DNA of 64,000 bases from a virus. Taxonomy: Duplodnaviria; Caudoviricetes. The DNA lies in IMG/VR virus record IMGVR_UViG_3300042866_001263, one strand, 5' to 3'. Below the pieces are notes generated by a model. The model did no database searches. It saw only the letters and a program-made list of their open reading frames with translations, and was not told where the DNA came from. Both the position numbers and the translations under genes were made by a program. Shown piece by piece: positions 2,489 to 19,700 of this stretch (positions within the stretch are counted from its first letter, which is position 1; each line of letters opens with the position of its first letter).

Positions 2489-4036
2489 ATGGATAAATCG
2501 AAGGTAATAGACAGAACGGTTATCAATAAAGATATAACATTTTACGATATTACTGAAGAAGGAAAACTTATAAAGTATTCTTATAAAGAATTTGAAAGGT
2601 TAGTAGATCAAATAAAGAATTATTTTCTTTCTAACTACGAAATAAAATTAGGAGAAACTGTTTTAATTGGTTATTACGGAACTTGTTTACGTAAAGTAGC
2701 CAGTGTTTTTGCTTGTCTAGAATTAGGACTTTCCATTTCAATAATTGATTACAACATTACAGTAATCTCACCAGAATCTGCTACTAAAACTAAACTATTA
2801 TCTCCCATACATTATTTTATTTGTGAGGATGATGTGATTGCAAAAAATCATCCTAGGAGTAAGTTTGCTGTTCTTACTAGACATTGTTTAAACACGATTT
2901 ATTTTACAAATATAAAAAAACATCAGTACAATGAAAATATAAATTATGATATAAAAATTGATCCAAAATCAATTGCAATGAGATGTACATCCAGTGGAAC
3001 TACTGGAACTCCAAAGATTATAGAACATAGTCATGATTTTTTGTTTGATGTTTGTCAAAGAAACTCTAAAATGTTCTATGGAAATGTCGTAAATGAAAAA
3101 TGTTTGGGTCATGGTAGCGGTCCAGCTACATATTTTATTCCAACATTGATGTCAAAAGAAGTAAAAAATGTATTCAATTATTGGGGAGATTGTTCTGATT
3201 TCAATGATCAAAAATATTTCATGAGAAATAAAAACATTTTTGATCACATTATGATTCCATATACTTATGATATTGATGGATATTTGTCTGGAATTGATCC
3301 TGAGAATCCTCCATCAAAGACAACAATTTACACTCTATCTACAATTAAAAAAGAATGGATATCTTTTGTAAAAGAAAACAAAATAAAAAATATTATAAGT
3401 TTATTTGGAACTTCGGAAACTAGTGGACCAATATTCATAAATCAAGCAAGTGATAAAAATTTTGTTCAGAACAAATTTAATTTAATAGACGATTATTATA
3501 AAATTTCTTTTGCTGAAAGAAATCTTTTGGAAGTAAATATTCCAATTTATAATCAAAAAGTTTGCACAAATGATCAATTCATAATTAATTCAGATGGATT
3601 TTATCATAATGGCAGAGCGGATTTAATACGAATAAATGATCATGTTGTGGATGTAAATAGTTACAATGAGATATTAAAAGTATTTAAACCTATCATAGAT
3701 TCCAAATTTGTATACGATCCTGCAGTAAATGAAATATACTTAGCTATATGGAAAACTTCTATAGTAGGAAATTCTGAAGAAACTGGAAAATCTAATTTAG
3801 ATATTTTGATAAGGATTATCAATAATAATATAGGAAATGTTTGTTTGGTTCATCATATAAGTAAATATGAAATTTTAGATCCTAAGTTATTTTTTACCGG
3901 AGTTAAAATAGATGATCAATTGTTACGAGACTATTTTAGATCCCATGTAGAGATAAAATCCAATCCTTCAACATTTATTTTGGAACATAAAGAACAATAT
4001 TTAAGAAAATTTGAAGGGTTGGACTTAGATCCATAA
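2489..4036 (+). CDS. Stand-alone adenylate-forming (ANL/AMP-binding) enzyme
   Basis: Core motifs TSSGTTGTPK (A3), FGTSE (A5), TND (A7), GRADLIRIN (A8), GVKID (A10). Confidence 0.75.
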   Translation: MDKSKVIDRTVINKDITFYDITEEGKLIKYSYKEFERLVDQIKNYFLSNYEIKLGETVLIGYYGTCLRKVASVFACLELGLSISIIDYNITVISPESATKTKLLSPIHYFICEDDVIAKNHPRSKFAVLTRHCLNTIYFTNIKKHQYNENINYDIKIDPKSIAMRCTSSGTTGTPKIIEHSHDFLFDVCQRNSKMFYGNVVNEKCLGHGSGPATYFIPTLMSKEVKNVFNYWGDCSDFNDQKYFMRNKNIFDHIMIPYTYDIDGYLSGIDPENPPSKTTIYTLSTIKKEWISFVKENKIKNIISLFGTSETSGPIFINQASDKNFVQNKFNLIDDYYKISFAERNLLEVNIPIYNQKVCTNDQFIINSDGFYHNGRADLIRINDHVVDVNSYNEILKVFKPIIDSKFVYDPAVNEIYLAIWKTSIVGNSEETGKSNLDILIRIINNNIGNVCLVHHISKYEILDPKLFFTGVKIDDQLLRDYFRSHVEIKSNPSTFILEHKEQYLRKFEGLDLDP

Positions 4037-4048
4037 CAACTTAAAAAA

Positions 4049-4324
4049 ATGCATTTACAGATAATGACTAAATTTAACATAGTAAAAAAAAGTTTGATTC
4101 ATTTGGAGTCTAGTAAAGAAACTTATACAAGTCATTTATTATGGGCTTCTTATGCTGGATTTAAAATGATCTTTGTTGGTATTTCCAGTGTGATTCATGG
4201 AATTGTTCCGGCTTTATTCACAGGCACAGCAGCAAGAATGGTCATAGATTTTTATCACCAGAGATTGGTTAATCACCCAAATAAAGAATATGCAGATTAC
4301 ATTGCCAAACAATCGCATATATAA
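4049..4324 (+). CDS. Small membrane protein, DUF6356-like
   Basis: H..ETY..HL pattern, hydrophobic stretch, IHGIVPALF. Confidence 0.55.
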   Translation: MHLQIMTKFNIVKKSLIHLESSKETYTSHLLWASYAGFKMIFVGISSVIHGIVPALFTGTAARMVIDFYHQRLVNHPNKEYADYIAKQSHI

Positions 4325-4367
4325 GTAGAATAATGATACTATCTGAACTTTATTAATAAAATTAGTT

Positions 4368-5705
4368 ATGAGTATAAAATCCAGTAAAACTTTTTGTATG
4401 GCTCCTTGGGTTCATATGAATATAGGACCAAACGGAGATGTTTATCCCTGTTGCATGATGCCTATATGTGGAACAGAGGGAATTGATGAGGACACAAAAG
4501 AAACAACTGATTCAACTGATGAAACAAAAGAAGATGATAAACAATTAATAAATCCTTTGGAGATTGTTGCTACCGAATGTGCTGGTACTCCTAGAGATTT
4601 TAAAATGGGTTCTCTAATGAATGAATCTCTTAAAGAGATTTGGAACAACGAAAAAATGAGAGAACTTCGTAAAAACATGATGGAGGGAAAAGAATCTAGT
4701 TATTGCACATCATGTTACAAAGAAGAAGAAATAGGTCATGGTTCTTTACGATGCAGTATGAATCAGACTTATGCAGAACATTATAAGTATGTTTCAGAAA
4801 CAAAAGAAGATGGAACCTTTGAAAGATTTAATCTTGTCTATTGGGATTTTAGATTAAATAATGTCTGTAATTTTAAATGCAGAATGTGCAGTCCCGGATA
4901 CAGTAGTGCTTGGGAACGTGAAATGCGGAAGGAATTTAATATAGAAGGAGAATACCCAAAAATTGATGTAGATATGGTTCACCAAGATATTGAACCGTTG
5001 TATGATATTGTAGAAGAAGTTTACTTCGCCGGCGGAGAACCTTTAATCACAGACCATCATTATAAAATTCTACGCAAGTTAATTGAAAAAAATAGAAATA
5101 CATCTGTCAGATTATCATATAATACTAATTTTAGTACCTTAAAGTACAAGGATGATAATGTTCTTGAACTATGGAAAAAGTTTCCAAATCTATATTTGTC
5201 TGTAAGTTTTGATGGTACTGGTAAGAAGGGAGAATTAATTCGAAAAGGATTCGATTGGCAAAAGTTCCTAGATAATTTCAAACAATTTAGAAGTAAGTTC
5301 CCCCATACAAACGTAAAGATTAACTATGTCTTTCAAGCCATAAATTGTTTCCATACTATGGATGCCCATAAAGAACTTTATATGAGAGGTATCATTAATA
5401 GTTGGGATGATTTTTCTTTGTGCATATTGCACAATCCCGATTACATGTCAGTTTTAATTCATGATCTTGAATCTAGACGTTTATTGGCTCAAAAAATTAA
5501 ATATCATATAGAAAATTATCTCGTGCCTGCAAAAGCTAAAGAATCAATTAAACAATACATGTCAGTTCTCAAACTTTTGTCCGGTGAAGAAAGAAAAGAT
5601 CTTGTTCCGTATTTTAAATCTTATATGTCTGCACTTGATTGTATAAGAAATGAAAATTCTTTAGAAGTTTTTCCTGAGTTAGAGGGGATTTTAGGAGATG
5701 ATTAA
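4368..5705 (+). CDS. Radical SAM protein with N-terminal SPASM/twitch domain
   Basis: FCMAPW..GDVYPCC..CTSC; CNFKCRMC (CxxxCxxC); YFAGGEP. Confidence 0.85.
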   Translation: MSIKSSKTFCMAPWVHMNIGPNGDVYPCCMMPICGTEGIDEDTKETTDSTDETKEDDKQLINPLEIVATECAGTPRDFKMGSLMNESLKEIWNNEKMRELRKNMMEGKESSYCTSCYKEEEIGHGSLRCSMNQTYAEHYKYVSETKEDGTFERFNLVYWDFRLNNVCNFKCRMCSPGYSSAWEREMRKEFNIEGEYPKIDVDMVHQDIEPLYDIVEEVYFAGGEPLITDHHYKILRKLIEKNRNTSVRLSYNTNFSTLKYKDDNVLELWKKFPNLYLSVSFDGTGKKGELIRKGFDWQKFLDNFKQFRSKFPHTNVKINYVFQAINCFHTMDAHKELYMRGIINSWDDFSLCILHNPDYMSVLIHDLESRRLLAQKIKYHIENYLVPAKAKESIKQYMSVLKLLSGEERKDLVPYFKSYMSALDCIRNENSLEVFPELEGILGDD

Positions 5706-6942
5706 TAAAAATAAAGTCAATGTAAACGGAAAAATTTTTTGTGTTGCACCTTGGTTAGCTTTAGATATTCGACAGGATGGAGAAGTAAAACCATGTTGTG
5801 TCTCTGAATACACTTATGGTGACATTAAGGAAAAACCTTTATGGGAAATTTGGAACGATGAACCAATAAGAAAACTTCGAGAAAATATGTTAAATGATGT
5901 ACCTAGCGAACATTGTCAGGTATGTTATAACAATCAAGCAGCTGGAAAAAGTTCATTAAGAGAAGATTTCATTGGTGATTTATTTTCACAATATAAAAAA
6001 TTAATATATGGAACGAATGATGATTATACAGTAAGTCAACCTACTTTCGTTTGGTGGGATTTGAAATTAAGTAATAAATGCAATTTCAAATGTAGAATGT
6101 GTAGTTGGACTTCAAGTTCCAGTTTTGAGTTAGAACAGAATGGAAAAATTTCTGGGAGATGGAATGCTTCTGAAAAAACGTATGAAGAAGTCGAACAATA
6201 TCTCGGAATGGTTAATCACTTATATTTTTCTGGAGGTGAGTCTTTAATTATAGACGAACATTGGAAAATACTTGATAAACTAATTGAACTTGGTAGAAAT
6301 AATAAGGTTAGTTTGGCATACAATAGTAATTTTAGTAATCTTGTTTATAAAGGCAGACATATCTTTGATATGTGGGATCAATTCAACGAAGATCTGCAAG
6401 TTCACATCAGCGTTGATGGTATTGGTGCGAGAGGGGAATTAATTAGAAAAGGATTTAAATGGGATAGATTTGTTTCTCATGCACAACAATTTAGAGAAAG
6501 ATTTAAAGACAAAGAAGAGACTCACCAATTACACTTTGATTGTACAGTTCAAGCATTAAATATTTTTGAAGTTGTTAAACTTCACCAATATCTTTATACT
6601 AGTGGATTGATGAAAGACATCGATTTCTTCTTTCTAAATTTTATGCAAAATCCAAGAGAAATGTCAGTTTGGATTTTGGATAAACAGACAAAAGAAGCTG
6701 CAAAAGCAAACATAAGAGATCATATAGATAATTTTTTAATTCCTAATAAGTCCAGTAGATCAGTAATCTTCTATGAAAGTCTAATAAAATATATTGATTT
6801 GTATCAGGAACAACATTTGATCCCAGATTTCTTGAGATCAATGCGAAAGTTTGATAAATTACGAAATGAAAGTACTATTCAAACATTTCCAGAGTTTCAA
6901 AGGATCTGGAATGTCATTAAGACTAAACCTAAAACTTTATAA
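5698..6942 (+). CDS. Second radical SAM/SPASM-twitch paralogue
   Basis: FCVAPW..VKPCC..CQVC; CNFKCRMC; YFSGGES. Confidence 0.85.
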   Translation: MINKNKVNVNGKIFCVAPWLALDIRQDGEVKPCCVSEYTYGDIKEKPLWEIWNDEPIRKLRENMLNDVPSEHCQVCYNNQAAGKSSLREDFIGDLFSQYKKLIYGTNDDYTVSQPTFVWWDLKLSNKCNFKCRMCSWTSSSSFELEQNGKISGRWNASEKTYEEVEQYLGMVNHLYFSGGESLIIDEHWKILDKLIELGRNNKVSLAYNSNFSNLVYKGRHIFDMWDQFNEDLQVHISVDGIGARGELIRKGFKWDRFVSHAQQFRERFKDKEETHQLHFDCTVQALNIFEVVKLHQYLYTSGLMKDIDFFFLNFMQNPREMSVWILDKQTKEAAKANIRDHIDNFLIPNKSSRSVIFYESLIKYIDLYQEQHLIPDFLRSMRKFDKLRNESTIQTFPEFQRIWNVIKTKPKTL

Positions 6943-6944
6943 AA

Positions 6945-7094
6945 ATGACGCAAACAATCTCGGATAAAAAGGAAAAGGAACACAAAGAAGAAAGAAAGGA
7001 CAATATCTTTCTAGAAATTCTTTCTAATATTTTTATTCAACTTCCAGTTATAGCTATTGGGTGGATTATCTCACAGTTTACTTCAGAAGGATAA
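6945..7094 (+). CDS. 49-aa membrane micro-protein (cassette copy 1), not in track
   Basis: MTQTISDKKEKEHKEERKDNIFLEILSNIFIQLPVIAIGWIISQFTSEG; paralogue at 32293-32424. Confidence 0.6.
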   Translation: MTQTISDKKEKEHKEERKDNIFLEILSNIFIQLPVIAIGWIISQFTSEG

Positions 7095-7949
7095 TCTAGC
7101 TGATAATTTCTTAGCAATTTTTTTAGCAGGGGCAAAGAGAGACTTAAATCTTTCTTTGCCTTCTTTTGTAAACTTATCTTTGATAACATCATCAATAATG
7201 ATTTTATTATCAATCTCATAGAGAGAATTGATTTCAACTTGATCACGAATGTATTGTTCTACATTAGTTACTTGTTCTACTAAACGAGTTCCTTCTGCAG
7301 AATATTCAAAAACATCTATATGTCCACCTTCTGCCATAACATAATGCAGAACTGGTTTGACTTGTTTAATTTTAATTTTAAATTTATTTTTAGTTGCTTC
7401 CTTAATGATTGGTTCTGCTGCGTTTTTCAGGGCATTCAGAACAGTTGTTGATGCTATAGTAGCAGCAGTGGTAACTACTGCTACAGCACCAGCCGTAGCA
7501 ACAAGAGAAGGATCAGGTAAATTAATATCGATTCCACCGACAGTAAAGGTTGGAGTAGTAGGTTTATCTGCTGGTATCTCAGCAACTGGAACTTGGACAG
7601 AGGGGGTCTGAGTAACTTGAGGCAGTTGAGGTGGAGGGGTTGAATCCGGAAGTCCTCTATTTTTTGCTGCGTCTTCTTGTGCCTGTTTTTCTTTATCCGC
7701 TCTCACAGCAGCATCAAACTCTTCCTGTGTAGGAACATTGATGACTGGATACTTAATGGAAGTATCTGGCATTTCAAATACGGGAAGTGCCATTCCACGA
7801 ACAATTGGAACTTCTACGCTACGAAGTACTGGCTGTTCTATTGTTGAAATGACACTTGGACCATCAATACCAATTTTTGGTATTACCTTAGAATTATTTG
7901 GTATGTTGGCAATTCCATTGGTATTATTTATTGGCGGTATTGGATCCAT
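7083..7949 (-). CDS. Pro-rich single-TM protein (cassette copy 1)
   Basis: Pro-rich N-half, TM SLVATAGAVAVVTTAATIA; paralogue 32416-33282. Confidence 0.7.
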   Translation of the reverse strand: MDPIPPINNTNGIANIPNNSKVIPKIGIDGPSVISTIEQPVLRSVEVPIVRGMALPVFEMPDTSIKYPVINVPTQEEFDAAVRADKEKQAQEDAAKNRGLPDSTPPPQLPQVTQTPSVQVPVAEIPADKPTTPTFTVGGIDINLPDPSLVATAGAVAVVTTAATIASTTVLNALKNAAEPIIKEATKNKFKIKIKQVKPVLHYVMAEGGHIDVFEYSAEGTRLVEQVTNVEQYIRDQVEINSLYEIDNKIIIDDVIKDKFTKEGKERFKSLFAPAKKIAKKLSARLSF

Positions 7950-8493
7950 TTGGATACCTCACAACTATATCGGCACAGATTCTGTAGTATGGACTTTCTG
8001 GGTGAAATGTAATACCAGATTTGATTGCTTCGCCACACTTTAATAGTCTGACTAATTCAAAATCAAGTCTTGCTTTGTCTGCTTCTGCATTTTGTCGTTT
8101 GATTTCAGAACGGGCTCTTTCCTTACAGAGTTCGGTTAGTCCTCCATCTAAAGGAAAGTTGAAACCCATACTTACACCAGCGTTACCATTATGTGATTGA
8201 AATGTTGATGGGTCTTGACTGCCATTCATACTCCCCAATACAAAGGGAGAAAAACTCATGGTTGGTCCTTGGCAACTAACTCCTCCGCCGTAGGTATTGA
8301 CTGCATACGGTCCTTGTAAGACTTGGACAGCTTGGTTAGTAACATTACCTGTAGCGGAAGCAGAAGGGCCAGCGATATTAGTATTACTAGGAGCAGATTG
8401 AGAATAAGCCGCACCATGACATAATACTCCTATTGCGTAAAGACAGATATAGATGTAGTTGTTGATTGTGTTTCTGTGCTTCGATCTATCCAT
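7924..8493 (-). CDS. Exported beta-strand plus coiled-coil protein (cassette copy 1)
   Basis: Signal-like N-terminus, GNVTNQAVQVLQGP, ARLDFELVRLLKCGE; paralogue 33257-33826. Confidence 0.7.
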   Translation of the reverse strand: MDRSKHRNTINNYIYICLYAIGVLCHGAAYSQSAPSNTNIAGPSASATGNVTNQAVQVLQGPYAVNTYGGGVSCQGPTMSFSPFVLGSMNGSQDPSTFQSHNGNAGVSMGFNFPLDGGLTELCKERARSEIKRQNAEADKARLDFELVRLLKCGEAIKSGITFHPESPYYRICADIVVRYPNGSNTANK

Positions 8494-8789
8494 GTTTCTT
8501 TAGCCACTCCAGGTCCGAGATAAGTCTCACTAAACTGGAAAGGGGCACCTTGATTCATAATACTGTAATTTGCTCCTTGTTGAGGAGTGCCAGGAATGTT
8601 AATATTAGTTCCAGTCACAGTGTATGATGTGCCAGTTGTATATTCAACTTGGCGAATTGTTTCTATAACTTTTGTAGTTGATTCGGTTGTCGCGTTGATT
8701 GTACCCCTAGTAAAATTAGGTACAACACTTTCCGCTAGGGCAGGACAAGAAAACCCTAGCAGGAGAAGTCCCGCTAGGATATGTCTCAT
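8430..8789 (-). CDS. Secreted Thr-rich protein (cassette copy 1)
   Basis: Signal peptide ending PALA-ESVVPNFTRG; near-identical paralogue 33763-34122. Confidence 0.75.
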   Translation of the reverse strand: MRHILAGLLLLGFSCPALAESVVPNFTRGTINATTESTTKVIETIRQVEYTTGTSYTVTGTNINIPGTPQQGANYSIMNQGAPFQFSETYLGPGVAKETWIDRSTETQSTTTSISVFTQ

Positions 8790-9247
8790 TTGAATACGCT
8801 TAACTCAACTGTTCTTTGAGCTGTTGCAGTAGTTCCAGGACCACCAGCAGTTACAGTAGGAACACCAGTAGGCGATAATGTACCAGCGAGAGATCCTTTA
8901 TCTCCTGCTAACTGAGTAACACTATCCCCATAAAGGTTGGGAGAAGCAATAACTCCACCACTGACCGACTGAGTGGTGACTGGTGTATCAGCAGCATTGA
9001 AAGTTTCTGAGAAACTGAATGCTTGACCTGGAGTATTAATATTGTAACTTCCGGCACCATTTACGCCACCGAATGTAGTTGCTTGAATATTTGTTCCTGA
9101 AGCAGAATAAGATGCTCCAATTCTTGTTGATTGAACCGCTGCGCCCTGTACACCCAATTGAACGGAATCAGTAATTTTTGATGTAATTTCAGCAGCACTA
9201 ACAGGATTGATTAAGAATAACGAAAAGACGAGTAATAATCTTTTCAT
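8786..9247 (-). CDS. Secreted Gly/Ser/Thr-rich protein (cassette copy 1)
   Basis: Signal peptide ending PVSA-AEITS; paralogue 34119-34580; minus-strand late promoter at about 9272-9278. Confidence 0.75.
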   Translation of the reverse strand: MKRLLLVFSLFLINPVSAAEITSKITDSVQLGVQGAAVQSTRIGASYSASGTNIQATTFGGVNGAGSYNINTPGQAFSFSETFNAADTPVTTQSVSGGVIASPNLYGDSVTQLAGDKGSLAGTLSPTGVPTVTAGGPGTTATAQRTVELSVFK

Positions 9248-9288
9248 TGTTCTATGAATTAGTTGGCAGCTTATTTATCTACTTTATA

Positions 9289-11952
9289 TTATTTTGTGAG
9301 AAATCCCCTAAAAGACACATTACTTATACTTAATGTTCCTTGAAATGGTTCATTGCCAGTTAATGCGTCCCAAATAACAATGGGATCTCCACCTTCTAAA
9401 CTATTTACATTTGCCCAGTTTACATCATTTGCACTGGTTGATTCTACTCCAGTAAAAAATTGAGATGTATCTGCAGTTCCAACACTGTTCCTTAACCAAG
9501 TTCTCACATCTTGCCAAGTCCAAGTACGGTTGTATTGTAACTTAGTTGCAATCAATCCCGTTGCTACTGGACATGCGGAACTTGTGCCACTAAAAGCTTC
9601 ATCATATGAGGTTAATACACTATTAGAAACTCTAGCATTAGCCCCAAAATGAATATCAATTTGACTTGGACTTGCTTCATAAAAAGTTGCTTCATAAACC
9701 ATAGTAGGAGAACCAAGTGTTCCCCCAGTACTATTGGTCCCTTCCCATCTAATTCTATATGTTCTATTTGGAGAAGAACCTTCTGTACCATAATAAATTC
9801 TTTGACAAGAATTATCTGCACAAGACATCATAATTTTTCTGAATGCTGGGTTAGAAAAACTTAATCCATTGAATGCAGTTGATCCTCCACCAAAAGTAAT
9901 GTATGTATTTGTTCCTGGATAAACGATGTTTGTACTGAGTCCAGCAAATTGTATAGTAAATGGTAAAGTTAAGGTCCAAAATCCATCATCATTAGTTCCA
10001 TTAGTTGGAGTTGTTGCAGTGGATGCTAATCCTACAGCACCCAATAAATTTAATTCTAAATCGACAACAGTACCAATACCAGAACTTGTCGTAATTCTTT
10101 TCCCCGTATTTAATAGTAATCGGAAACCACTAGTTCCACTGAGTTCTGCACTGACACTGGCAATTCCAGTGAGTCCACTATCACTTGGAATCACTGATCC
10201 AGTATAAGTATCAGGTCTTGGTTGGTTTACTTGATTAGTTGCACTTAGAGTTCCATCTGCTGGTGCATAACAATCAATTTCATTTCCCATATCACTATAA
10301 TTGACTTTCCATTCTTTGCCAGTTAGATTAAATGCATCATCAAGAGCTCCAATATTGATAACAGGATAAATTAGATTACCTCCACCATCAGTATACATAC
10401 CCAATTGTTGTGGGTATCCTCTTCTGTTAGTCGTATTATATGCAGTAACACCAAATTCCGAATGTGTAGATTCTCCCAGTGTTGCTCCACTTCCAACAGT
10501 ACTCCAATAATTATTGAAATCTGGGTGAGTTTGACTTACTTGTTTTTGGTTGGAGTTCCCTGCTGCAGCAATAAAAATAACTCCGGCATCAATCATCTCT
10601 TTTCCTGCTGTTAATACAGAGTTTGGGAGATGTTCACCCTTCATTCTATTACCATCACCATAAACTCCAACATAATTCATGAATCCTGGCAATGTACTTA
10701 TAGTATAACTGGTTCCTATACCTTGACCACGATAAAAATACCATCCAGTAGTTCTATGAGATGTTGATCTATATCCCCAACTATTACTACTTATTGTTGG
10801 ATTTTTATTTCCATATCTTGGATTGATTCTTTTTGCTTGATGAAACAATTTCATCATGGTGAAATATGGTTCAAAATCTGTACCATCAGTTCCATAAGCA
10901 TTTACTGACCATTTGTTTGCATTATATGCCCATCCTTGAGTCCGGCCAACAGCGTTTGCTGTACACTGAGTACCATGAGTTGTAGTAATAGTTGGTCTAG
11001 CAGAAGAAGAACCATTACAACGAGCTCTCGTGTATGCGGATGTTACAGTAACCGTACCTATTGTAGAAAACCCTACAGATCTCTGCGATGAGTTTGACCA
11101 CCAAGTTCTAGCAACACTTTCTACTGGAACTCTAGTTCCATCCCACCGTAATGTTAATCTAGAAGCTGGCACAGCTTCAAACCATGCTGGATCAATCCAA
11201 TAAGGAGCATCTAAAACAAGATCTAAAAGATCACATGTCCCGTTTGTAGCAGAAGTTGCTAAAGTAGAAAATCCAACCGCTAATGCATTTCTTCCTTTAT
11301 AATCTCTTGGACCAGTTCCTGTTGCATTAGTTTGAAATTCTACATGACCAAACCAACATCCTTCATCACCAACTATGACATCAATATCTGTTCCATCACC
11401 ATATTGTGGAATTACATTGGTTAATATTTGATTTGATCCTGTAGATATGCCCGTATACCACGAATCGGATTTATTAACGCATCTTAGGAGTTGATATCCA
11501 CTTCTGTTTAATTCTGTTGCTCCAGGACTTGCGGGAAGTTGGTTATTATCACTCCAGTTTCTATATTGTCTTGTTGCAGTATTATAACGATTTTTTTTTA
11601 TATATCCCGCATGTAGTTCTTCTGGATCTGGTTTGTACTTGCAAGGATAACTTTCATAATTTTCATGAACATATTCTACTCTTGGATGTTTGAGTAGTTC
11701 ATTTGCTTCTTGGTCTGTCAATAGATAAACAGCCCTAGTTTCACTATGTTCTTTTAAGTCTGCACAATCGCAACATTCATGAGGAATATTGTCTTCTAAA
11801 GTACCATCTTGAACCAAAAGTTCATGGATATATTGCCAATCTTCTGAGGAATAACAACCAACTGCATATAATTTTTTGGCATTTGGATCCGTTGGATACT
11901 CGATACCTAATCCAATTTGATGATCGTATTCTTTTTTGATTTCGTTTTCCAT
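9289..11952 (-). CDS. Subtilisin-like (S8) serine protease, probable virion protein
   Basis: Catalytic motifs DVIVGDEG (Asp), THGTQC (His), AAAGNS (oxyanion Asn), FSGTSSACP (Ser). Confidence 0.8.
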   Translation of the reverse strand: MENEIKKEYDHQIGLGIEYPTDPNAKKLYAVGCYSSEDWQYIHELLVQDGTLEDNIPHECCDCADLKEHSETRAVYLLTDQEANELLKHPRVEYVHENYESYPCKYKPDPEELHAGYIKKNRYNTATRQYRNWSDNNQLPASPGATELNRSGYQLLRCVNKSDSWYTGISTGSNQILTNVIPQYGDGTDIDVIVGDEGCWFGHVEFQTNATGTGPRDYKGRNALAVGFSTLATSATNGTCDLLDLVLDAPYWIDPAWFEAVPASRLTLRWDGTRVPVESVARTWWSNSSQRSVGFSTIGTVTVTSAYTRARCNGSSSARPTITTTHGTQCTANAVGRTQGWAYNANKWSVNAYGTDGTDFEPYFTMMKLFHQAKRINPRYGNKNPTISSNSWGYRSTSHRTTGWYFYRGQGIGTSYTISTLPGFMNYVGVYGDGNRMKGEHLPNSVLTAGKEMIDAGVIFIAAAGNSNQKQVSQTHPDFNNYWSTVGSGATLGESTHSEFGVTAYNTTNRRGYPQQLGMYTDGGGNLIYPVINIGALDDAFNLTGKEWKVNYSDMGNEIDCYAPADGTLSATNQVNQPRPDTYTGSVIPSDSGLTGIASVSAELSGTSGFRLLLNTGKRITTSSGIGTVVDLELNLLGAVGLASTATTPTNGTNDDGFWTLTLPFTIQFAGLSTNIVYPGTNTYITFGGGSTAFNGLSFSNPAFRKIMMSCADNSCQRIYYGTEGSSPNRTYRIRWEGTNSTGGTLGSPTMVYEATFYEASPSQIDIHFGANARVSNSVLTSYDEAFSGTSSACPVATGLIATKLQYNRTWTWQDVRTWLRNSVGTADTSQFFTGVESTSANDVNWANVNSLEGGDPIVIWDALTGNEPFQGTLSISNVSFRGFLTK

Positions 11953-11972
11953 TCTTTAATTATTTAAAAAAT

Positions 11973-14756
11973 TTATGGGACTAAGACGGTACTCAAAACA
12001 CCAGAGTCATCAACAATCAAACGATATTTAGTACCATTTGGAGAAGTTAATATGACGCCTTGAGAGGTATTGATTCCAATTCTTGCATCACCAACAACAG
12101 TAAGTCTTGATGTTGCAATAGTAGTTCCTATGCCAGTGTTTCCACCAATAGTCAAGTCAGTGCTGATTGCAACTCTTGGCGTATTGATACTTATAGTGTC
12201 TGTTGATTCTATGATTGGTGTTCCCGCAGTTACACTATCAAACCTTGAAGCAGTAACTATACCCGTAAACTTACCACTACCAACAACATCAATGTTTGAA
12301 GTTGGTAGTGTAGAACCAATGCCTAGATTAGATCCAGAGTTAATAATAACTGTACCAACACCTGCGGTTGGACCAACACTGATTCTTGTAAATGAACCAG
12401 ATGCTCCGTTAGTACCTAAGTTAATTGTTTTAGTGCTTCCAGATGCAGTAACACCTGCTTGGATATCTGTTGTTTGAGAAACCGTCGAACGACCAAATGT
12501 AATTGCACCAGTACCAGAAGATCCTCCAAGTGTTATGGTCCCTGATGTCTGATTGCTACCAAATACATGTGTTCCTGTAGTATTGCCAGTTAAGTCAAGT
12601 GTAGCAGATGCAGTTAATGTATTTGAAAATGATTGTACTGCAGTGAAAGTCTGAGATAATCCAAGAACTGCTAGAGTATCAGTAGCAGTAATTACAGGTA
12701 AGTTTAAAGTTCTATCCGCAGTAATAGCTCCAGAAGTGATATTGTACTGGAAAGTATTTGCTGAGTTTCTTACTTTTAATCCAGTAGTTAAGAAAGTACC
12801 AATACCAGTTACATTCAGATTAGCTGTTGTTGTGATAGCAGAAACACTAAGTTGTGTAATAATACCAACTCCACCTATGACACTTGTAGAAATTCCTGCG
12901 GAAGTTGCAATACCAGCAGAAGTAGAATAACCAGCGATAGGTGAGTAACTTACATTTACTGTTACTATACCAACAGACTCAGGTGTTACGGAAATTCCTG
13001 TGCCAAAATTAATTGTTCCTGCACTTCCAACTAAAGAATTATCATCATTTACAATGATAGATGTACCTCCACCACCACCTCCAGAAATTAGAACGTTAGC
13101 GATGGAAGAAATTCTTCCATTTGAATCAACAACAATTTGAGGTACTGAAGTTGCATTACCATAAGTGTTTGCTGATGCTCCAGTCAATCCAGTTAAACTG
13201 GATGCAGAACCAATATAAGAAGTTGCTGTAATCACACCAGAAACTCTTACATCTCCACCAACAGTAAGTTTTGATGTTACATTTGTGGTTCCTATACCGA
13301 CACCAGTATTAGTAACTCTTACTTGTTCATTTTCTGCAAGAGTTCCCCCAGCAAATAGGGAAAGATATTTACTTGCAGATGCTGCACCTATTGATAGATT
13401 TCCATCAGACGTATATAAGTATCCATCTAATGCACCGTTGATGGTCCAACTTGTTGTTGTAAATCCAGTATTATTAATACCAAGATCAATGAAGTTAGAA
13501 GTATCTGTACCAGTATCTGTAGTTACAACAATATCACCAGATGCGTTAGTGCCTGAGAGAGAATTCCTTACGTTTAACTGGCCATATCCATTGACACTTG
13601 AAGTAAAATCTGCAATGGCATTTACAAGACCTTGGGTAATTGTAGCACCAATACCACTCACAGTCAATCTATAAGGTGGGTTGCCTGCAGTAGTTCCAAT
13701 GCCTACAGAATCATTGATTGCAACTCCGTTTTGGAAAGTTTGAAACTTTAAAACACTATCATAATAAAGTTCAACTCCAGCGTCATTATTGAAAACACCC
13801 ATTAATGCACCGGATGTTTTCTTTAATTGAATTCCAGTACCACTATCTCTAAGAATTAAATTTCCTGGACTTGCATTATCAATGTAACTATTGTTACCAT
13901 CATGGAAAATTTGCAGTTCATCGGTATCTCCAATTAATAGAGTACTTTCAAAGTGAACAGATTTTTGAAATGTTGAAGCCGCTCCAACGTTAATGGAAGA
14001 AGTAACACCTACTCTATATACATCAATACTTGGTGTTCCAGTGAGTCCTTGAGCTACTGTAGCGATACCAGCAGTGTTTGCATATCCACTATTAGTACTT
14101 CCAGGAACATTAGTAAGTAAAGATCCATCACCAATGAATTGAGTTGCTGTGACTACTCCCACATTAAGGTTTGGTGTTCCAGTAAGTCCCTGAGCTACTG
14201 TAGAGATACCAGCAGTATTTGCATAAGTAGATACTCCAGATACTCCAGATGAGTCCGCGTATAAAGCGGTAGTAACAATTCCAGTGACAGTTATGGATGA
14301 AGCAACTGAAATAGTTACTCTTCCAACTCCATCGGGTCCAGTGGATACAATATTATCACCAAAGTTTAATTCTCTTGCTACTCCTTTTCTGACATTATCA
14401 TCTAATACTTCTAAACCACCTACAAGTGCTGTAACATTTGTAAGTTGAGATCCATCACCCACAAATTGAGTTGCAGTAACTACTCCAGTAGAAGTAATAT
14501 TTCTTACTTCAATGTGTTCTGTAGTTGTAATGCCGGTGTTTAAAATACCACTGACGTTTATTCTTGGGGATCCTGTTAAATTTCTTGCAAGTGTAGAAAT
14601 TCCTGCAGTACTTGCGTAACTTATTAAATTATTTCCATCTCCTATTGTATTGTAAATTTCGGTAAAATTACTATTGATTTTACCCATTGCAATTCTTAAT
14701 GGATCGCCCTGACCATCATTTGGACTACTACCAGTGTTGATCCCGAGTCTAGACAT
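11973..14756 (-). CDS. Tail fibre-like virion protein with gp9/10-like N-terminus
   Basis: N-terminal GINTGSSPNDGQGDPLRIAMGKINSNFTEIY; G/T/S-rich repeats; YAxTAGIxTxAxxLTGxP occurs three times. Confidence 0.75.
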   Translation of the reverse strand: MSRLGINTGSSPNDGQGDPLRIAMGKINSNFTEIYNTIGDGNNLISYASTAGISTLARNLTGSPRINVSGILNTGITTTEHIEVRNITSTGVVTATQFVGDGSQLTNVTALVGGLEVLDDNVRKGVARELNFGDNIVSTGPDGVGRVTISVASSITVTGIVTTALYADSSGVSGVSTYANTAGISTVAQGLTGTPNLNVGVVTATQFIGDGSLLTNVPGSTNSGYANTAGIATVAQGLTGTPSIDVYRVGVTSSINVGAASTFQKSVHFESTLLIGDTDELQIFHDGNNSYIDNASPGNLILRDSGTGIQLKKTSGALMGVFNNDAGVELYYDSVLKFQTFQNGVAINDSVGIGTTAGNPPYRLTVSGIGATITQGLVNAIADFTSSVNGYGQLNVRNSLSGTNASGDIVVTTDTGTDTSNFIDLGINNTGFTTTSWTINGALDGYLYTSDGNLSIGAASASKYLSLFAGGTLAENEQVRVTNTGVGIGTTNVTSKLTVGGDVRVSGVITATSYIGSASSLTGLTGASANTYGNATSVPQIVVDSNGRISSIANVLISGGGGGGTSIIVNDDNSLVGSAGTINFGTGISVTPESVGIVTVNVSYSPIAGYSTSAGIATSAGISTSVIGGVGIITQLSVSAITTTANLNVTGIGTFLTTGLKVRNSANTFQYNITSGAITADRTLNLPVITATDTLAVLGLSQTFTAVQSFSNTLTASATLDLTGNTTGTHVFGSNQTSGTITLGGSSGTGAITFGRSTVSQTTDIQAGVTASGSTKTINLGTNGASGSFTRISVGPTAGVGTVIINSGSNLGIGSTLPTSNIDVVGSGKFTGIVTASRFDSVTAGTPIIESTDTISINTPRVAISTDLTIGGNTGIGTTIATSRLTVVGDARIGINTSQGVILTSPNGTKYRLIVDDSGVLSTVLVP

Positions 14757-14828: not shown

Positions 14829-15266
14829 ATGCAATTCAACTTTCAATTTGATAAAAAGAGACCAGATAAAAAACAACTTATTATAGTTGGAGTTGTAATA
14901 TCAACTATAATCGCAACACTCTCCCAGTGTTCGGGAGTTTCTGAGAATAGACTTTGGGACTTATTGGATGAACTTCAGAGAAAGTATTTTCCACAAACTA
15001 TTCTTAATGACATTATACTTCAAGATCCAGACAAAGTAAATCGTAGAGTTGGTAGAGATATTGATAAGGCTATACGAGATGTAGAAAAAGAATATGATAG
15101 GATTATTGCAGAGTCAGATAGAAAATATAAACCACGATACCTTGAAGAGAAGAACGATGAGTCTTTATGTTACTCGGAGGATTGCAAAAAACTTGCACCA
15201 CCAATCAGAATGTGTTCTCCAGTTTTTGAGAGAACGGATTGTTCCCAGAAACCTGAAGATAAATAA
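14829..15266 (+). CDS. Hypothetical membrane-anchored phage protein
   Basis: ORF with N-terminal hydrophobic segment and a C-terminal Cys cluster. Confidence 0.55.
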   Translation: MQFNFQFDKKRPDKKQLIIVGVVISTIIATLSQCSGVSENRLWDLLDELQRKYFPQTILNDIILQDPDKVNRRVGRDIDKAIRDVEKEYDRIIAESDRKYKPRYLEEKNDESLCYSEDCKKLAPPIRMCSPVFERTDCSQKPEDK

Positions 15267-15300
15267 ATAGAATTATAAAAGTACTTTTTATCGTAGACAA

Positions 15301-16566
15301 ATGAGAGCAGAAGAAGTCAAGGGCCTCATGGAGGCATATTCGCATGTTTATGAGACCCCTGAGGTTTCTGACGAACAAATTTTTGAAGATTGGATGTATT
15401 CATTTGTAGAAGAAGGATATGATTTAAGTGAGTTTGATTGGGACTCTTCTTATGATGAAACTCTTGATGAAGCATTTGGATCTGAATTTGTCCAAAGAGG
15501 TGGTATTGCTGGAGCTCTTGGTAGAGCACAAGCAAGAGCAAAACAAGACGGAGGTGCTTCCAATAGAGCTTGGTTAGGAAATAAAGTTAAAGGTTTCTTT
15601 GATGCACAATCCCGTTTTGTCCAAAGAGGTGGTATTGCTGGAGCTCTTGGTAGAGCACAAGCAAGAGCAAAACAAGATGGAGGTGCTTCCAATAGAGCTT
15701 GGTTAGCAAATAAACTTGGTTTTGGTGGTTCCAACAAACCTGCTGCTAAACCAGCAACACCCGCTAAACCTGCTGCTAAACCTGCTGCTCCTGCAGCTGC
15801 TGCTAAACCTGCTGCACCTGCAGCTTCTGCTAAACCTGCTGCTAAACCTGCTGCTCCTGCAGCTGCTGCTAAACCTGCTGCAACTTCTGCTGCTAAACCT
15901 TCTGCACCAACATCTCCTGCAGCTAAACCCATGTCTGCGATGGACCAGTGGGCAAAAGCAAATCCAAAACTTGCTCAAGCTCAAAAAATTAGACAACAAG
16001 GTGGTTCAAGAGCGGAAGTTAATAAAGTTCTTTATGATAAAGGAACCGCAGCTGCTGAAAAAACTCCTACGGTAGTAAAGGCTGGTGTAGACATCTTCGA
16101 TCTAGTCAAAGGTCACCTTCTAGATGAGGGCTATGCGGACTCTGAGGACGCTGCAATGGTCATCATGGTCAATATGAGTGAAGAGTGGAGAGAGTCTATT
16201 CTAGAGTCTTATAACGTCGAACTTGGTGAATCATCAAAAACAGATGATGCTACAAGAGCACGCATTAAAATGTTTGCTGGTAAGAAAGGAATTTCATTCG
16301 AACCTGGACCAAGATGGGATGCTTCTGCTAATCGTGGAAAGGGTGCTCACTTATCTGATAAACAAGTAGAGAAACAAAGAAGAAAGAAACTTCGTTCAGA
16401 AGAATATATGGATGAAGCCCAAGGAGCTCGTGAAAACCCAGAAGATCATGATAAGGAAGAAAAGAAAAAGTATGAAAAAGTTCGTGGAGAAAAGACCCCT
16501 ATGCCACCAAGAGGTGATAAGCGTAGAGAAGATTTTGAGAAGTGGTATCGTGCTAATGTTCGTTGA
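15301..16566 (+). CDS. Acidic/low-complexity protein with KPAA repeats, possible internal head protein
   Basis: LMEAYSHVY N-terminus, internal duplication, AKPAA repeats; late promoter ATAAATA about 15260-15268. Confidence 0.6.
   Translation: MRAEEVKGLMEAYSHVYETPEVSDEQIFEDWMYSFVEEGYDLSEFDWDSSYDETLDEAFGSEFVQRGGIAGALGRAQARAKQDGGASNRAWLGNKVKGFFDAQSRFVQRGGIAGALGRAQARAKQDGGASNRAWLANKLGFGGSNKPAAKPATPAKPAAKPAAPAAAAKPAAPAASAKPAAKPAAPAAAAKPAATSAAKPSAPTSPAAKPMSAMDQWAKANPKLAQAQKIRQQGGSRAEVNKVLYDKGTAAAEKTPTVVKAGVDIFDLVKGHLLDEGYADSEDAAMVIMVNMSEEWRESILESYNVELGESSKTDDATRARIKMFAGKKGISFEPGPRWDASANRGKGAHLSDKQVEKQRRKKLRSEEYMDEAQGARENPEDHDKEEKKKYEKVRGEKTPMPPRGDKRREDFEKWYRANVR
15487..15706 (+). repeat. 91-bp direct repeat (15487-15577 and 15616-15706), one synonymous mismatch
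   Basis: Read directly; encodes FVQRGGIAGALGRAQARAKQDGGASNRAWL twice. Confidence 0.9.
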
Positions 16567-16586
16567 GAACAATTAAAATATAACCC

Positions 16587-16609
16587 AGGGGGGATATCCC
16601 CCCTTTTTT
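16587..16609 (+). terminator. Intrinsic terminator
   Basis: GGGGGG-ATAT-CCCCCC followed by T6. Confidence 0.85.
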
Positions 16610-16651
16610 AATGTTCGGATAAATAAGTCTAAGTGATTCAAAAAACTTTTA

Positions 16652-16756
16652 ATGATTAGAAAACTTTGGAATCTTATTTCTGACTGGAAAAAAGAAAGAG
16701 ATTTTACTAAAAGACTTAAAAAACTTCAAAAAAGAGATCCGTTTATTTACAAGTGA
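16652..16756 (+). CDS. 34-aa micro-protein ending DPFIYK (copy 2), not in ORF track
   Basis: MIRKLWNLISDWKKERDFTKRLKKLQKRDPFIYK*; its TGA overlaps the GTG of the carbamoyltransferase; late promoter ATAAATA about 16618-16626. Confidence 0.7.
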   Translation: MIRKLWNLISDWKKERDFTKRLKKLQKRDPFIYK

Positions 16757-18177
16757 TTACCTGGGGAATATCTTCCGAAAGTCATAATGCTGCACTTTCT
16801 GTATTCATGAATGACACTCTCATTTTCGCTAGTGAAAGTGAGAGGTTTAGTGGTGTCAAGAATGATCACCAATTAAATGATGGTATAATTGAATATGCAT
16901 TAAAGTTTGGAAAACCAGAACTGGTCTGTTGGTATGAGAACCCGTATAAGAAAACACTTAGACAACTTCTTGCGGGTCAAGGATGGATCCAAAACGTCAA
17001 GAAGTATGTTGATGCTCCAATCAAGTATTATGATCACCATTATACTCATGCTTGTGCTGGTTATTTCACCAGCAAGTTTGATGAATGTTGTGTGGTGGTT
17101 ATTGACGCTATAGGTGAATTCCAAACACTTACTATCTGGGAAGCGAAAGGTAGTAACCTAAAACTAAAATTTCAACGTAGATATCCGCACAGCATCGGAC
17201 TTTGGTACTCTGCAATGACCCAAAGGTGTGGATTGAAACCAAATGAAGAAGAATATATCCTCATGGGCATGTCTGCTTACGGTGATAAGAGACGTTATGA
17301 GGATGCAATCTATGATGATTTTATAGGATGGAGAACGGCAACATTTAATAAAAACTTACATAAAGGTTGTAAGGATTGGAGACCAGATATTAAGAATACT
17401 TTTGATATTGCTGCCGCAACTCAAAGTATCTACGAAACAACATTTAGAGATATTTTACAGAGAGCATCTAATATTGTTGATAGTAAGAACTTGGTCTTGA
17501 TGGGTGGATGTGCATTGAACTGTGTTGCAAATCCAATTGCATATTATTACTTTGATAATGTGTGGATTATGCCTGCACCTGGAGACAATGGATCTGCGAT
17601 TGGTGCTGTACTTGCACATAAGAAGAAACATATTGATTGGCATGGTCCATATCTTGGTTATCATATAAAACCAGTTGCATCAAACGAAGAGATTGTTAAT
17701 CACTTGATGGATCATGGTCTCTGTGGAGTTGCAAGAGGTCGTGCAGAGTTTGGTCCTAGAGCATTAGGTAATCGAAGTTTGTTTGCTGATCCTAGAGATC
17801 AAAAGATTAAATCAATGGTCAACCGTATAAAACAAAGACAACAGTTTAGACCATTCGCTCCTGTGATTATGGAAGAATATGTTCATCAGTACTTTAGAAT
17901 GCCTACAAGTTCTTCACCATATATGCAATATGCGGTGAAATGTAGATACTCTAAAAAGTTTCCTGCAATTGTTCATATAGATAAGACAAGCAGAGTTCAA
18001 ACTATTAATAGACATCAAAACGCAGAACTCTATGATCTTTTGAAATTGTGGAACGAGAAAACTGGTTGTCCTATGTTACTGAATACCAGTTTGAATGTTA
18101 AAGGAAAACCAATGGTAAATGATGAGAAAGATTGTAAGGAATGGGAAGAGACTTACGGAGTTAAGGTGTTTTCATGA
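16753..18177 (+). CDS. Carbamoyltransferase (NodU/CmcH/TobZ family)
   Basis: SHNAA..SERFSGVKND, DHHYTHA, VIDAIGE, GGCALNC, GRAEFGPRALGNRS, LLNTSLN. Confidence 0.92.
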   Translation: MITWGISSESHNAALSVFMNDTLIFASESERFSGVKNDHQLNDGIIEYALKFGKPELVCWYENPYKKTLRQLLAGQGWIQNVKKYVDAPIKYYDHHYTHACAGYFTSKFDECCVVVIDAIGEFQTLTIWEAKGSNLKLKFQRRYPHSIGLWYSAMTQRCGLKPNEEEYILMGMSAYGDKRRYEDAIYDDFIGWRTATFNKNLHKGCKDWRPDIKNTFDIAAATQSIYETTFRDILQRASNIVDSKNLVLMGGCALNCVANPIAYYYFDNVWIMPAPGDNGSAIGAVLAHKKKHIDWHGPYLGYHIKPVASNEEIVNHLMDHGLCGVARGRAEFGPRALGNRSLFADPRDQKIKSMVNRIKQRQQFRPFAPVIMEEYVHQYFRMPTSSSPYMQYAVKCRYSKKFPAIVHIDKTSRVQTINRHQNAELYDLLKLWNEKTGCPMLLNTSLNVKGKPMVNDEKDCKEWEETYGVKVFS

Positions 18178-18929
18178 CTAAAATTTTACTTGCTTTTGGT
18201 GATAGTCACACAGGAGGTGCTGAAATAGATGAACAGTATTCATCTGAGTGTCATGATAGGGCTTATCCTGCACACATAGCTAAACATTATGGGTTTGATT
18301 ATGAAAACTATTCTGCTTGTGGTGGCAGCAATGATTGGATGATCAGACAATTTATGATAAGAATTCAAAATGCTTTGATGAAAAATCAAGAAGTTTTTGT
18401 TCTTTGTAATTTTTGTGAGGCTTCAAGAACTTATATTAAATTGCCAGGAAAACTTCATCATTGTACTTCTTCACACTTATTACAAGACAAAAATACTAAA
18501 AAAGAATTATTAATTGATTCCGATTTTATTGGACCTTATAAAAATTATATAGAAACAAACTCCGACAAATTTTTAAATTTTAAATCTTTATCTCAAATTT
18601 TTACAATACAATCAATATGTGATCAATACAGTATACCATATGTTTTTCATACAAGCACTCATTGGTATGAAGGAAATTGGCAACTAATTAATAAAAAAAA
18701 TTATTTTGGTCATCATGATACCGAAAGAGTAATTTATAACCAAGAAGAATCTTTTAAAAGTTATGCAAATTATTCTTATTGGGGAATAGCGACTCATCAT
18801 CCTGATTGGAAAAATTTAAGATATGATTCAAGATGGTCCATGCACTATCCAGAAGAATACCATAAGTTTTGGGCTCAATTATTAATTAACTTCATTGATG
18901 AACGGGGAATACTTGACACAGCCACTTGA
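18174..18929 (+). CDS. SGNH-like hydrolase or acyltransferase
   Basis: LLAFGDSHTGG, NYSACGGSND, C-terminal SMHYPEE. Confidence 0.6.
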   Translation: MTKILLAFGDSHTGGAEIDEQYSSECHDRAYPAHIAKHYGFDYENYSACGGSNDWMIRQFMIRIQNALMKNQEVFVLCNFCEASRTYIKLPGKLHHCTSSHLLQDKNTKKELLIDSDFIGPYKNYIETNSDKFLNFKSLSQIFTIQSICDQYSIPYVFHTSTHWYEGNWQLINKKNYFGHHDTERVIYNQEESFKSYANYSYWGIATHHPDWKNLRYDSRWSMHYPEEYHKFWAQLLINFIDERGILDTAT

Positions 18930-18995
18930 TGTGCAATAAAATAACTCTGTCAGGGTTCAAGGGATAAATAAGGCTCATATAATTTTAAGAGCTTT

Positions 18996-19433: not shown

Positions 19434-19560
19434 TAGTGTTGAAGATCTAAAAGATAGTATCATTGACCGAATTCATTATCTTGCAGACATGGGGGATTAC
19501 CTTAATGCCTGTGCAGTTTATGAGGAGTTTCGAGAAACGATTCAAGACGCAAATAAGTGA
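19414..19560 (+). CDS. Small hypothetical protein
   Basis: ATG at 19414 (MENQLIDS) is preferred over the tracked 19345 start. Confidence 0.5.
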   Translation: MENQLIDSVEDLKDSIIDRIHYLADMGDYLNACAVYEEFRETIQDANK

Positions 19561-19620
19561 TTGTTAGTAACAAAACTAAATAATCACTTATAATGATCTT
19601 CGTCATGAGATTTTGAAGTG

Positions 19621-19689
19621 ACATTAGAGCCCAGGAAAGTGCCCTCCGAGAGGAGCGGTGTACCCCCTTTCTATTGGGATGTAGAGTTC
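19621..19689 (+). ncRNA. Structured 5' leader of the lysozyme-like gene
   Basis: Nested pairings ACAT/ATGT, CCCA/TGGG, GAAAG/CTTTC and a CTCC-GAGA-GGAG GNRA hairpin. Confidence 0.45.
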
Positions 19690-19700
19690 AATCGGAGTTA

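Follow-up and report, generated by a model that had tools for sequence, protein, structure and literature searches.

IMG/VR virus record IMGVR_UViG_3300042866_001263 (Duplodnaviria; Caudoviricetes) supplied the 64,000-nt stretch of DNA analyzed here, hereafter the window, in which a cassette of four minus-strand genes and one small convergent gene is found twice, at 6945–9247 (copy A) and 32293–34580 (copy B). The window is part of a T4-like cyanomyovirus (cyanophage) of lakes: its gene content includes psbA, psbD, petF, an hli-like open reading frame (ORF), gp32, phoH, thyX, tail tube and baseplate genes, its nearest isolates are freshwater Synechococcus phages of the Kyanoviridae, and the sequencing runs that contain it are lake-water metagenomes.

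Layout and divergence of the two copies

Each copy consists of four overlapping ORFs on the minus strand, encoding proteins of 153, 119, 189 and 288 aa (genes 1 to 4), and a convergent small ORF whose product has a transmembrane segment (TM). The overlaps between the four ORFs, 4, 64 and 26 nt, are the same in both copies. The features of the two loci are as follows.

Copy A
9272–9278, minus: ATAAATA late-promoter-like motif, 31 nt upstream of gene 1
8786–9247, minus: gene 1, 153 aa, predicted secreted, Thr/Ser/Gly-rich; phrog_564; family of Syn9 gp167 (T4-GC 237); distant paralog of gene 2
8753–8780, minus: 12-bp hairpin followed by a T-run, in the first codons of gene 2, past the gene 1 stop
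8430–8789, minus: gene 2, 119 aa, predicted secreted; Pfam DUF6322; phrog_650; Syn9 gp166 (T4-GC 236)
7924–8493, minus: gene 3, 189 aa, predicted signal peptide; phrog_848/1755; Syn9 gp165 (T4-GC 235)
7083–7949, minus: gene 4, 288 aa, predicted single TM; weak phrog_9426; family of Syn9 gp164 (T4-GC 234)
6945–7094, plus: convergent small gene, 49 aa, K/E-rich head and predicted C-terminal TM; 12-nt overlap with the end of gene 4

Copy B
34603–34613, minus: two overlapping ATAAATA motifs, 29 and 33 nt upstream of gene 1
34119–34580, minus: gene 1, 153 aa
34086–34113, minus: 11-bp hairpin followed by a T-run, at the start of gene 2
33763–34122, minus: gene 2, 119 aa; DUF6322, 54.0 bits
33257–33826, minus: gene 3, 189 aa
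32416–33282, minus: gene 4, 288 aa
32293–32424, plus: convergent small gene, 43 aa, 100% identical to its counterpart in a related locus (L006)

Beside copy B only
31912–32115, plus: 67-aa protein with a predicted N-terminal TM; phrog_568 'plasmid stability' (E 2e-16); homolog of Syn9 gp162
31577–31915, plus: DUF6450 protein, 112 aa; family of Syn9 gp161 and P-SSP7 PSSP7_043; ATAAATA 31 nt upstream

At the DNA level, 7082–9281 and 32415–34612 are 79.2% identical across 2218 nt (blastn). This pair is the sole long repeat that blastn found in the window; its ends are sharp and no flanking gene is doubled. An initial annotation, made from the sequence alone, had reported the same four genes of identical lengths in two stretches, with residue differences at 4 of 119 positions in the 119-aa pair and 17 of 153 in the 153-aa pair and with frequent third-position changes. 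All of this was recovered: third positions differ in 25–46% of codons, and both counts are right. The longer proteins are more diverged, with differences in 45 of 191 aligned columns for the 189-aa pair and 80 of 291 for the 288-aa pair. Three of the four differences in the 119-aa pair fall within the signal peptide, so that the mature proteins agree at 99 of 100 residues. Identity between the copies is 95% in a conserved segment of the 189-aa protein, 62% in its hairpin region and 44% in the linker of the 288-aa protein. The small convergent gene, which had been listed as a shared fifth member, does belong to the same conserved family in both copies, but the two ORFs have only 15 of 49 residues in common and lie outside the DNA-level repeat. 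Because they form one family that occupies the same spot in relatives, "five genes, twice" is a fair description.

In both copies all ORFs are intact and every invariant residue is retained. The ratio of nonsynonymous to synonymous divergence (dN/dS, Nei-Gojobori) between the copies is 0.106, 0.041, 0.255 and 0.173 for the 153-, 119-, 189- and 288-aa genes, respectively, with dS of 0.46–1.02, and the ratio of each copy to its own nearest relatives is 0.04–0.21. Purifying selection had been proposed for both copies; the ratios (0.04–0.26) are indeed not near 1, but they were mostly accrued while each allele was the sole copy in its genome. Since most of the divergence between A and B predates their co-residence, low dN/dS is no proof that selection keeps two copies; it shows instead that both alleles were functional when brought together. 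The related proposal that two copies are kept for dosage or as heteromeric variants is not supported by these data, as the copies are old alleles by their dS, each with closer relatives in other phages.

A known cyanophage gene cluster

Judged by its protein families, the cassette is the 'mobile hypothetical genes cluster' of cyanophages (T4-GC 234–237; Syn9 gp164–167). The initial annotation had missed that this is a described, mobile and near-universal cyanophage cluster. The portion of Sullivan et al. (2010; PMC3037559) available to us gives its members as T4-GC 218, 219, 234, 235 and 237 plus a 'plasmid stability' gene, places it in all 16 cyanomyoviruses but S-PM2, describes its position as variable in six, and proposes mobility. 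File S1 of the same paper, as far as it was available, assigns T4-GC 234, 235 and 237 to 15 of 16 cyanophages and T4-GC 236 to 12 of 16, with a single coordinate pair per carrier genome and none of the 10 non-cyanophage T4-likes as a carrier. Its proteomic-data column, which covers the S-SM1, Syn9 and S-PM2 virion proteomes, is blank for all four clusters in that portion (PMC3037559). A role as a virion part was considered and set aside because of this blank column and the signal peptides described below.

In tblastn searches, Syn9 gp165, gp166 and gp167 match both copies (E 1e-34 to 4e-6), and gp161 and gp162 match 31595–32049. Syn9 gp164 has no row in the tblastn result; gene 4 was assigned to the gp164 family by a local profile search (36 homologs, marine loci), by its position in the cluster and by a weak phrog_9426 match. 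S-PM2 gave no match to the 119-aa profile. None of the papers searched names DUF6322 or reports a function for Syn9 gp164–167.

The 189-aa family is present in 462 phage records, T7-like cyanopodoviruses among them; the labels of all 462 are Synechococcus, Prochlorococcus, cyanophage, marine or uncultured. Among 185,579 species genomes there were six cassette loci, and two of their assemblies were checked. That of a Nonlabens xiamenensis isolate (loci L254 and L256) has the cassette on a 188-kb contig and also holds psbA, and therefore contains cyanophage DNA; in a Synechococcus metagenome-assembled genome, the cassette contig is 194 kb long and carries a psbA-like frame with an in-frame TGA. 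Across the phage records and species genomes covered, the cluster appears to be restricted to cyanophages.

Setting of the copies and origin of the second allele

The usual neighborhood of the cassette is of the copy B type. Of 82 loci, 69 have a DUF6450 gene close by and 24 have psbA, many of the loci being too short to show both. Copy B itself is flanked by psbA and, on its opposite side, by the DUF6450 and 'plasmid stability' genes. This linkage of a gp161-type (DUF6450) gene with phrog_568 is present for copy B, and no such gene lies within 7 kb of copy A, which is inserted between a radical-SAM/SPASM gene and a subtilase-like gene. A cassette occupies the A-type site in 6 of the 38 loci that have a close homolog of the radical-SAM gene. 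A 47-kb contig (G006) contains copy A only, without equivalents of 21–38.6 kb of the window, and one sequencing run (X6) has the same pattern. The variable filling of the A-type site therefore indicates an insertion polymorphism in a plastic region.

A single cassette per genome is the rule elsewhere: each of six large metagenomic relatives (96–205 kb) has one copy, all 205 phage records with the 119-aa gene have it at a single place, and the 189-aa gene has 465 places in 462 records, where the sole listed two-place record (S-SSM6a) is a single locus.

Several results bear on how the second copy arose: (i) In the 189- and 288-aa genes, other contigs are 83–87% identical to each copy, versus 73–76% between the copies. 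(ii) A DNA tree of 36 whole cassettes puts copy A in a 15-row clade with a support value of 98 (Shimodaira–Hasegawa-like approximate likelihood ratio test, SH-aLRT) and copy B outside it. (iii) When the cassette is scanned in sliding windows, some other contig is nearer to copy A than copy B is in 12 of 12 windows; for copy B the corresponding figure is 11 of 12 (one tie). The best relative switches along the cassette, which points to mosaicism, and the flanking genes of close relatives remain 90–98% identical. Because each copy is more similar to cassettes of other phages than to its sister copy, the second copy is most likely an allele gained by recombination with another phage and not a recent duplication. 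Under approximately unbiased (AU) tests, a sister relationship of A and B is not rejected (protein tree, p 0.168; DNA tree, p 0.144), which tells against a firm conclusion here; independent origin is therefore favored, not proven.

Predicted products of the cassette

Three of the products (153, 119 and 189 aa) carry an N-terminal signal-peptide pattern. The 153- and 119-aa proteins are distant paralogs with typical signal peptides (VSA|AE and ALA|ES, respectively) and end, as had been noted, in ELSVFK- and SISVFTQ-type sequences. The 119-aa proteins score 51.6 and 54.0 bits against DUF6322 (PF19847; gathering cut-off 30.6) and are thus members; the 153-aa proteins, at 15.8 and 15.2 bits, are not members by the Pfam rule and have in common with the 119-aa family a G-x-A-F-x-F-S-E-T core. 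An alignment of 51 freshwater and marine sequences of the 119-aa family has 26 invariant columns, including the mature N-terminus V-V-P-N-F and the C-terminus S-[IV]-F-x-Q. Marine-phage members of the 153-aa family end in EITVID.

The structural model of the 119-aa protein (predicted local distance difference test, pLDDT, 73.5; predicted template modeling score, pTM, 0.32) is a long β-hairpin with strands at 28–51 and 94–118, each of ~24 residues. The 189-aa protein (pLDDT 65.9, pTM 0.36) comprises, in order, a signal peptide, a highly conserved unstructured segment (N-Q-A-V-Q-V-L-Q-G-P-Y), a β-hairpin and a 42-residue helix, and has four invariant or near-invariant Cys residues, an arrangement compatible with an extracytoplasmic protein held by disulfide bonds. 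In the 288-aa protein, a Pro-rich N-terminal part precedes a single Ala/Thr/Val-rich TM (~147–174) and a Lys-rich C-terminal part, and we infer an N-out, C-in topology for it; its relative in P-SSP7 is 121 aa long, with a TM at 74–100 and a basic tail. The Pro-rich single-TM anchor and the protein combining a β-hairpin with a long helix had both been anticipated and are borne out by these analyses.

The small convergent proteins, of 43–52 aa, form one family in which a K/E-rich head and a C-terminal TM accompany a D-N-I-F-x-[DE]-x-L-Y-N core. Members occupy the corresponding position in 24 of the 45 unique related loci whose flank was usable (own count), and the gene overlaps the end of the 288-aa gene by 4–12 nt. 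The DUF6450 protein beside copy B has one hydrophobic stretch at threshold in a hydropathy scan, a second read from the sequence and an acidic tail, and appears holin-like in form only. Together, these features support the view that the cassette products are exported or membrane proteins.

Searches for remote likeness gave little. Neither model had a significant match beyond its own family in Foldseek against PDB, in VIA-wide or in BFVD (own family only), and profile searches against PDB sequences returned nothing meaningful (0 matches, and 1 match at E 1.7). A likeness to TolC is weak: Foldseek matched chains at E 0.4–2.3 with probability ≤0.57 over 70–130 columns, VIA-wide matched the helix only (Z ≤4.5), and Pfam gave no OEP match at E 0.1. 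In the protein atlas, the 288-aa protein falls in unnamed viral clusters only. A complex prediction for the mature 153- and 119-aa proteins (score 0.01, mark 0.32) says nothing either way.

Promoter-like motif and hairpin

The cassette may be made late. A T4-type late-promoter-like ATAAATA motif lies 29–33 nt upstream of gene 1 in both copies, in agreement with the late expression suggested at the outset, and no sigma-70-like site was found upstream of gene 1 on that strand in either copy. The T4 late promoter is given as TATAAAT(A) in the part of PMC3037559 consulted. In the window, 13 of 23 instances of ATAAATA lie 25–42 nt upstream of a start on the same strand, where ~0.3 would be expected by chance (own arithmetic). 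The motif also precedes the DUF6450 gene, the tail tube gene and several large ORFs.

The hairpin of gene 2 lies within the first 60 nt of the 119-aa gene, eight bases past the stop of the 153-aa gene. Relatives have it in two versions of unrelated sequence. Compared with synonymous recodings, one version is more stable at a mean z of -4.66 (26 of 28 beyond 99%) and the other at -2.42 (14 of 32 beyond 99%); the sequences are mutually related, so these counts are not independent. RNAalifold returned no consensus for the hairpin because the two versions are out of register. The hairpin could be an attenuator, an mRNA stabilizer or a translational-coupling device; by attenuating or stabilizing the transcript, it may yield the first product in excess.

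A possible role at lysis

Our best guess for the function of the cassette, tentative and unproven, is that it breaches the outer envelope at lysis. In the proposed mechanism, the module would be made late and its products would use the Sec pathway. The 288-aa protein would be anchored in the inner membrane, its basic tail facing the cytoplasm and its Pro-rich arm reaching into the periplasm. The periplasmic and outer-membrane side would be formed by the 189-aa protein, a disulfide-bonded hairpin with a coiled coil, and by the two DUF6322-type proteins, long β-hairpins of which the 153-aa one is probably in excess. Acting with the holin-like DUF6450 protein, this set would breach the outer envelope when the cell lyses, in place of the spanins absent from cyanophages. 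The two alleles may simply be neutral cargo in a mobile cassette, or may suit two types of host envelope.

Gene order in a T7-like phage is consistent with this proposal. Genes 042–045 of P-SSP7 (phrog_9426, DUF6450, phrog_650 and phrog_1755/848) are located between the tail-fiber genes and the small terminase gene. This slot we take to be the holin/spanin region of T7, with holin 17.5 in it and spanins 18.5/18.7 nearby. The Rz-type family PF03245 was over cut-off in none of five cyanophage records; the T4 holin family PF11031 was likewise found in none of the five, a result that is uninformative because the control genomes gave no match either. According to the part of Kongari (2018; PMC6139136) consulted, no spanin was found in 91 phages, 20 of them phages of Prochlorococcus or Synechococcus that include P-SSP7, Syn9 and S-PM2, and an N-out, C-in inner-membrane protein could serve as an i-spanin.

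Several points weigh against a role at lysis: (i) No experiment or homology links the cassette proteins to lysis. (ii) S-PM2, without the cluster, still lyses its host. (iii) The late timing is read from a 7-nt motif. (iv) There is no conserved lipobox in the 51-row alignment of the 119-aa family, where copy A has GFSC, copy B has GFSS and no Cys is conserved; the signal peptides of the other exported cassette proteins end in A-x-A-type sites. (v) An i-spanin is expected to have an N-terminal TM, an N-in/C-out topology and a periplasmic coiled coil, whereas the TM of the 288-aa protein lies at ~147–174 and is followed by the Lys-rich part, and the long helix is in a separate secreted protein (189 aa). 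The predicted N-out/C-in topology, for which the positive-inside rule is the sole basis, is the opposite of that of i-spanins. (vi) Both structural models are of modest confidence. (vii) Polar residues line both faces of the strands in the 119-aa model, as read from the sequence, which makes a lipid-embedded pore unlikely. (viii) Two copies of a lysis module would have no obvious use. In its most specific form, that of a new envelope-breaching machine that replaces spanins and whose fast-evolving 189-aa hairpin and anchor linker are fitted to particular host envelopes, the proposal is quite improbable.

Alternative explanations

Superinfection exclusion or envelope masking, a doubtful alternative, would have the exported proteins alter the periplasm or outer membrane and block adsorption or injection by other cyanophages, the two diverged alleles widening the range of competitors kept out. 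Such a specificity function would make sense of two alleles in one genome. It would also suit a cassette that is mobile and mosaic, that is dispensable in S-PM2 and in which the fastest change falls in the 189-aa hairpin (62% identity between the copies) and the 288-aa linker (44%), against 90–98% identity for the flanks of close relatives. With carriers among T7-like cyanophages and 15 of 16 marine cyanomyoviruses, however, the cassette would be unusually universal for an exclusion system, and the only promoter-like signal is of the late type, whereas exclusion genes are expected early. PADLOC assigned no family to nine proteins, its library being one of host defense rather than of phage exclusion.

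It is unlikely that the cassette encodes a surface fiber, a pilus-like polymer or an envelope channel with another role, such as uptake or a change of the cell surface, in which the 153-aa protein would be the major and the 119-aa protein the minor subunit. A surface fiber was among the initial suggestions, and nothing shows one: the listed Foldseek and VIA fold matches are all weak and include no pilus (pilin), curli or secretin chain, and Pfam searches of 10 products returned no usher, chaperone, secretin, CsgG or curli-type family. T7-like cyanophages, moreover, have only one of the two subunits. What speaks for this alternative is that two of the secreted subunits are paralogs whose N- and C-terminal strands are conserved, that a strong hairpin past the first subunit gene suits operons overproducing their first subunit, and that an OprB-type porin elsewhere in the window shows envelope tinkering in this phage.

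The remaining alternative concerns the second copy itself, which could be an assembly artefact, i.e., a chimeric metagenome contig of two related phages. The window does come from a metagenome-type record, populations with copy A only and without the 21.6–35 kb stretch exist (run X6 and the 47-kb contig G006), and no read or contig seen spans both copies; but the cassette alone is repeated, with sharp ends and no doubled flanking gene, and two further lake runs support the assembly, so that we regard an artefact as very improbable. In contigs of these runs (X2 and X3, which may share one sampling campaign with the source sample), 15001–35000 is covered in 30 of 30 bins at a flat depth of ~18 and ~11, zero-difference contigs cross the copy B boundary at 32416, and 0.93 of the sampled words of 6500–9700, the copy A stretch, are present. 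At 79% identity, the copies are not confusable at the 95% mapping threshold. Both copies are thus likely on one molecule, although none of the reads and contigs seen joins A and B. One RNA run (X20) yielded a single 167-nt contig at 33161–33327 with 6 differences; it comes from a relative and DNA carry-over is possible, and it was not used as evidence of expression.

Other genes of the window

Adjoining copy A, at 2489–6942 on the plus strand, are genes for an AMP-binding enzyme, a DUF6356 protein and two radical-SAM/SPASM proteins; this run looks like a small phage-borne peptide-modification or biosynthetic set. Upstream of copy A, 9289–14756 on the minus strand holds an 887-aa subtilase-like ORF (Peptidase_S8, E 8e-13, split match) and a 927-aa ORF without a family match, with ATAAATA 36 nt upstream of the latter. 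A segment of 2346 nt at 16593–18940, comprising a carbamoyltransferase gene and the next ORF, is absent from contigs of DNA runs X2, X3 and X6, which have 27 other letters in its place; a variant without those genes therefore co-occurs in the same lakes. The gap stops 56 nt before a segE-like GIY-YIG endonuclease gene (18996–19433). At 21243–22799 on the plus strand is a gene for a 518-aa protein that combines an SLH domain with a carbohydrate porin domain of OprB type (E 1.7e-15); porins of this type belong to cyanobacterial outer membranes, and here one is encoded by a phage. An 86-aa ORF at 24356–24616 on the plus strand, adjacent to a glutaredoxin gene, has a weak likeness to the Phd/YefM antitoxin (E 3e-5, under the Pfam cut-off).

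Implications

Because its products appear to be exported, of late type, limited to cyanophages and common to T4-like and T7-like members, with a putative lysis slot in the latter, the cassette is a concrete and testable candidate for outer-membrane passage. The abundant cyanophages of Synechococcus and Prochlorococcus account for 20 of the 91 spanin-less phages in the part of PMC6139136 consulted. The two-copy genome shows the cassette moving as a unit, four genes and a small TM gene with its own promoter-like motif, and shows which change is tolerated, since the mature 119-aa protein is 99% identical between the copies as against 44–62% in two other segments. Copies A and B form a natural allele pair that could be compared by swapping. 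If the cassette is a spanin replacement fitted to hosts, a phage with two alleles could lyse, or exclude rivals on, two host types, and this genome would serve as an experiment of nature, with two alleles, on host range at the exit step. If the function differs, it still holds that few unexplained gene sets of marine and lake cyanophages are as widespread as the cassette. Overall, the two-allele genome is a modest but useful addition.

Comparison with known systems

The 119-aa model weakly resembles the stems of β-barrel pore formers and the knobs of phage tails (lysenin, aerolysin, the anthrax PA pore, and the lower collar or knob of phi29 and P68) in consisting of one very long β-hairpin. 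It differs from them in having no head domain and in the polarity of both strand faces, the model is of a single chain, and no match is better than weak (Foldseek at best E 3.6e-3 with probability 0.47, VIA at best Z 4.2).

Two-component spanins (lambda Rz/Rz1 and T7 gp18.5/18.7) are alike in the proposed job and logic, in which an inner-membrane anchor and one or more outer-side partners would act across the periplasm. They are also alike in having a coiled-coil-like helix, conserved Cys residues, late expression (putative in the cassette) and, in T7-like cyanophages, the genome slot. In contrast, the cassette has no sequence similarity to them and no lipoprotein signal, and it comprises four to five proteins rather than two.

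The closest system is the cluster of Sullivan et al., with which the cassette has in common the same protein families, a tight three-gene core accompanied by a TM protein, and a varying position in the genome. The association with DUF6450 and phrog_568 is matched by copy B, whereas copy A is without both partners. In the freshwater lineage the TM-protein gene is on the same strand as the core and not convergent with it, and there is an extra small TM gene. This genome has two copies, whereas all 15 carriers in the available portion of File S1 have one coordinate pair. The cluster itself is thus already described, and the new element is one genome with two diverged alleles of it.

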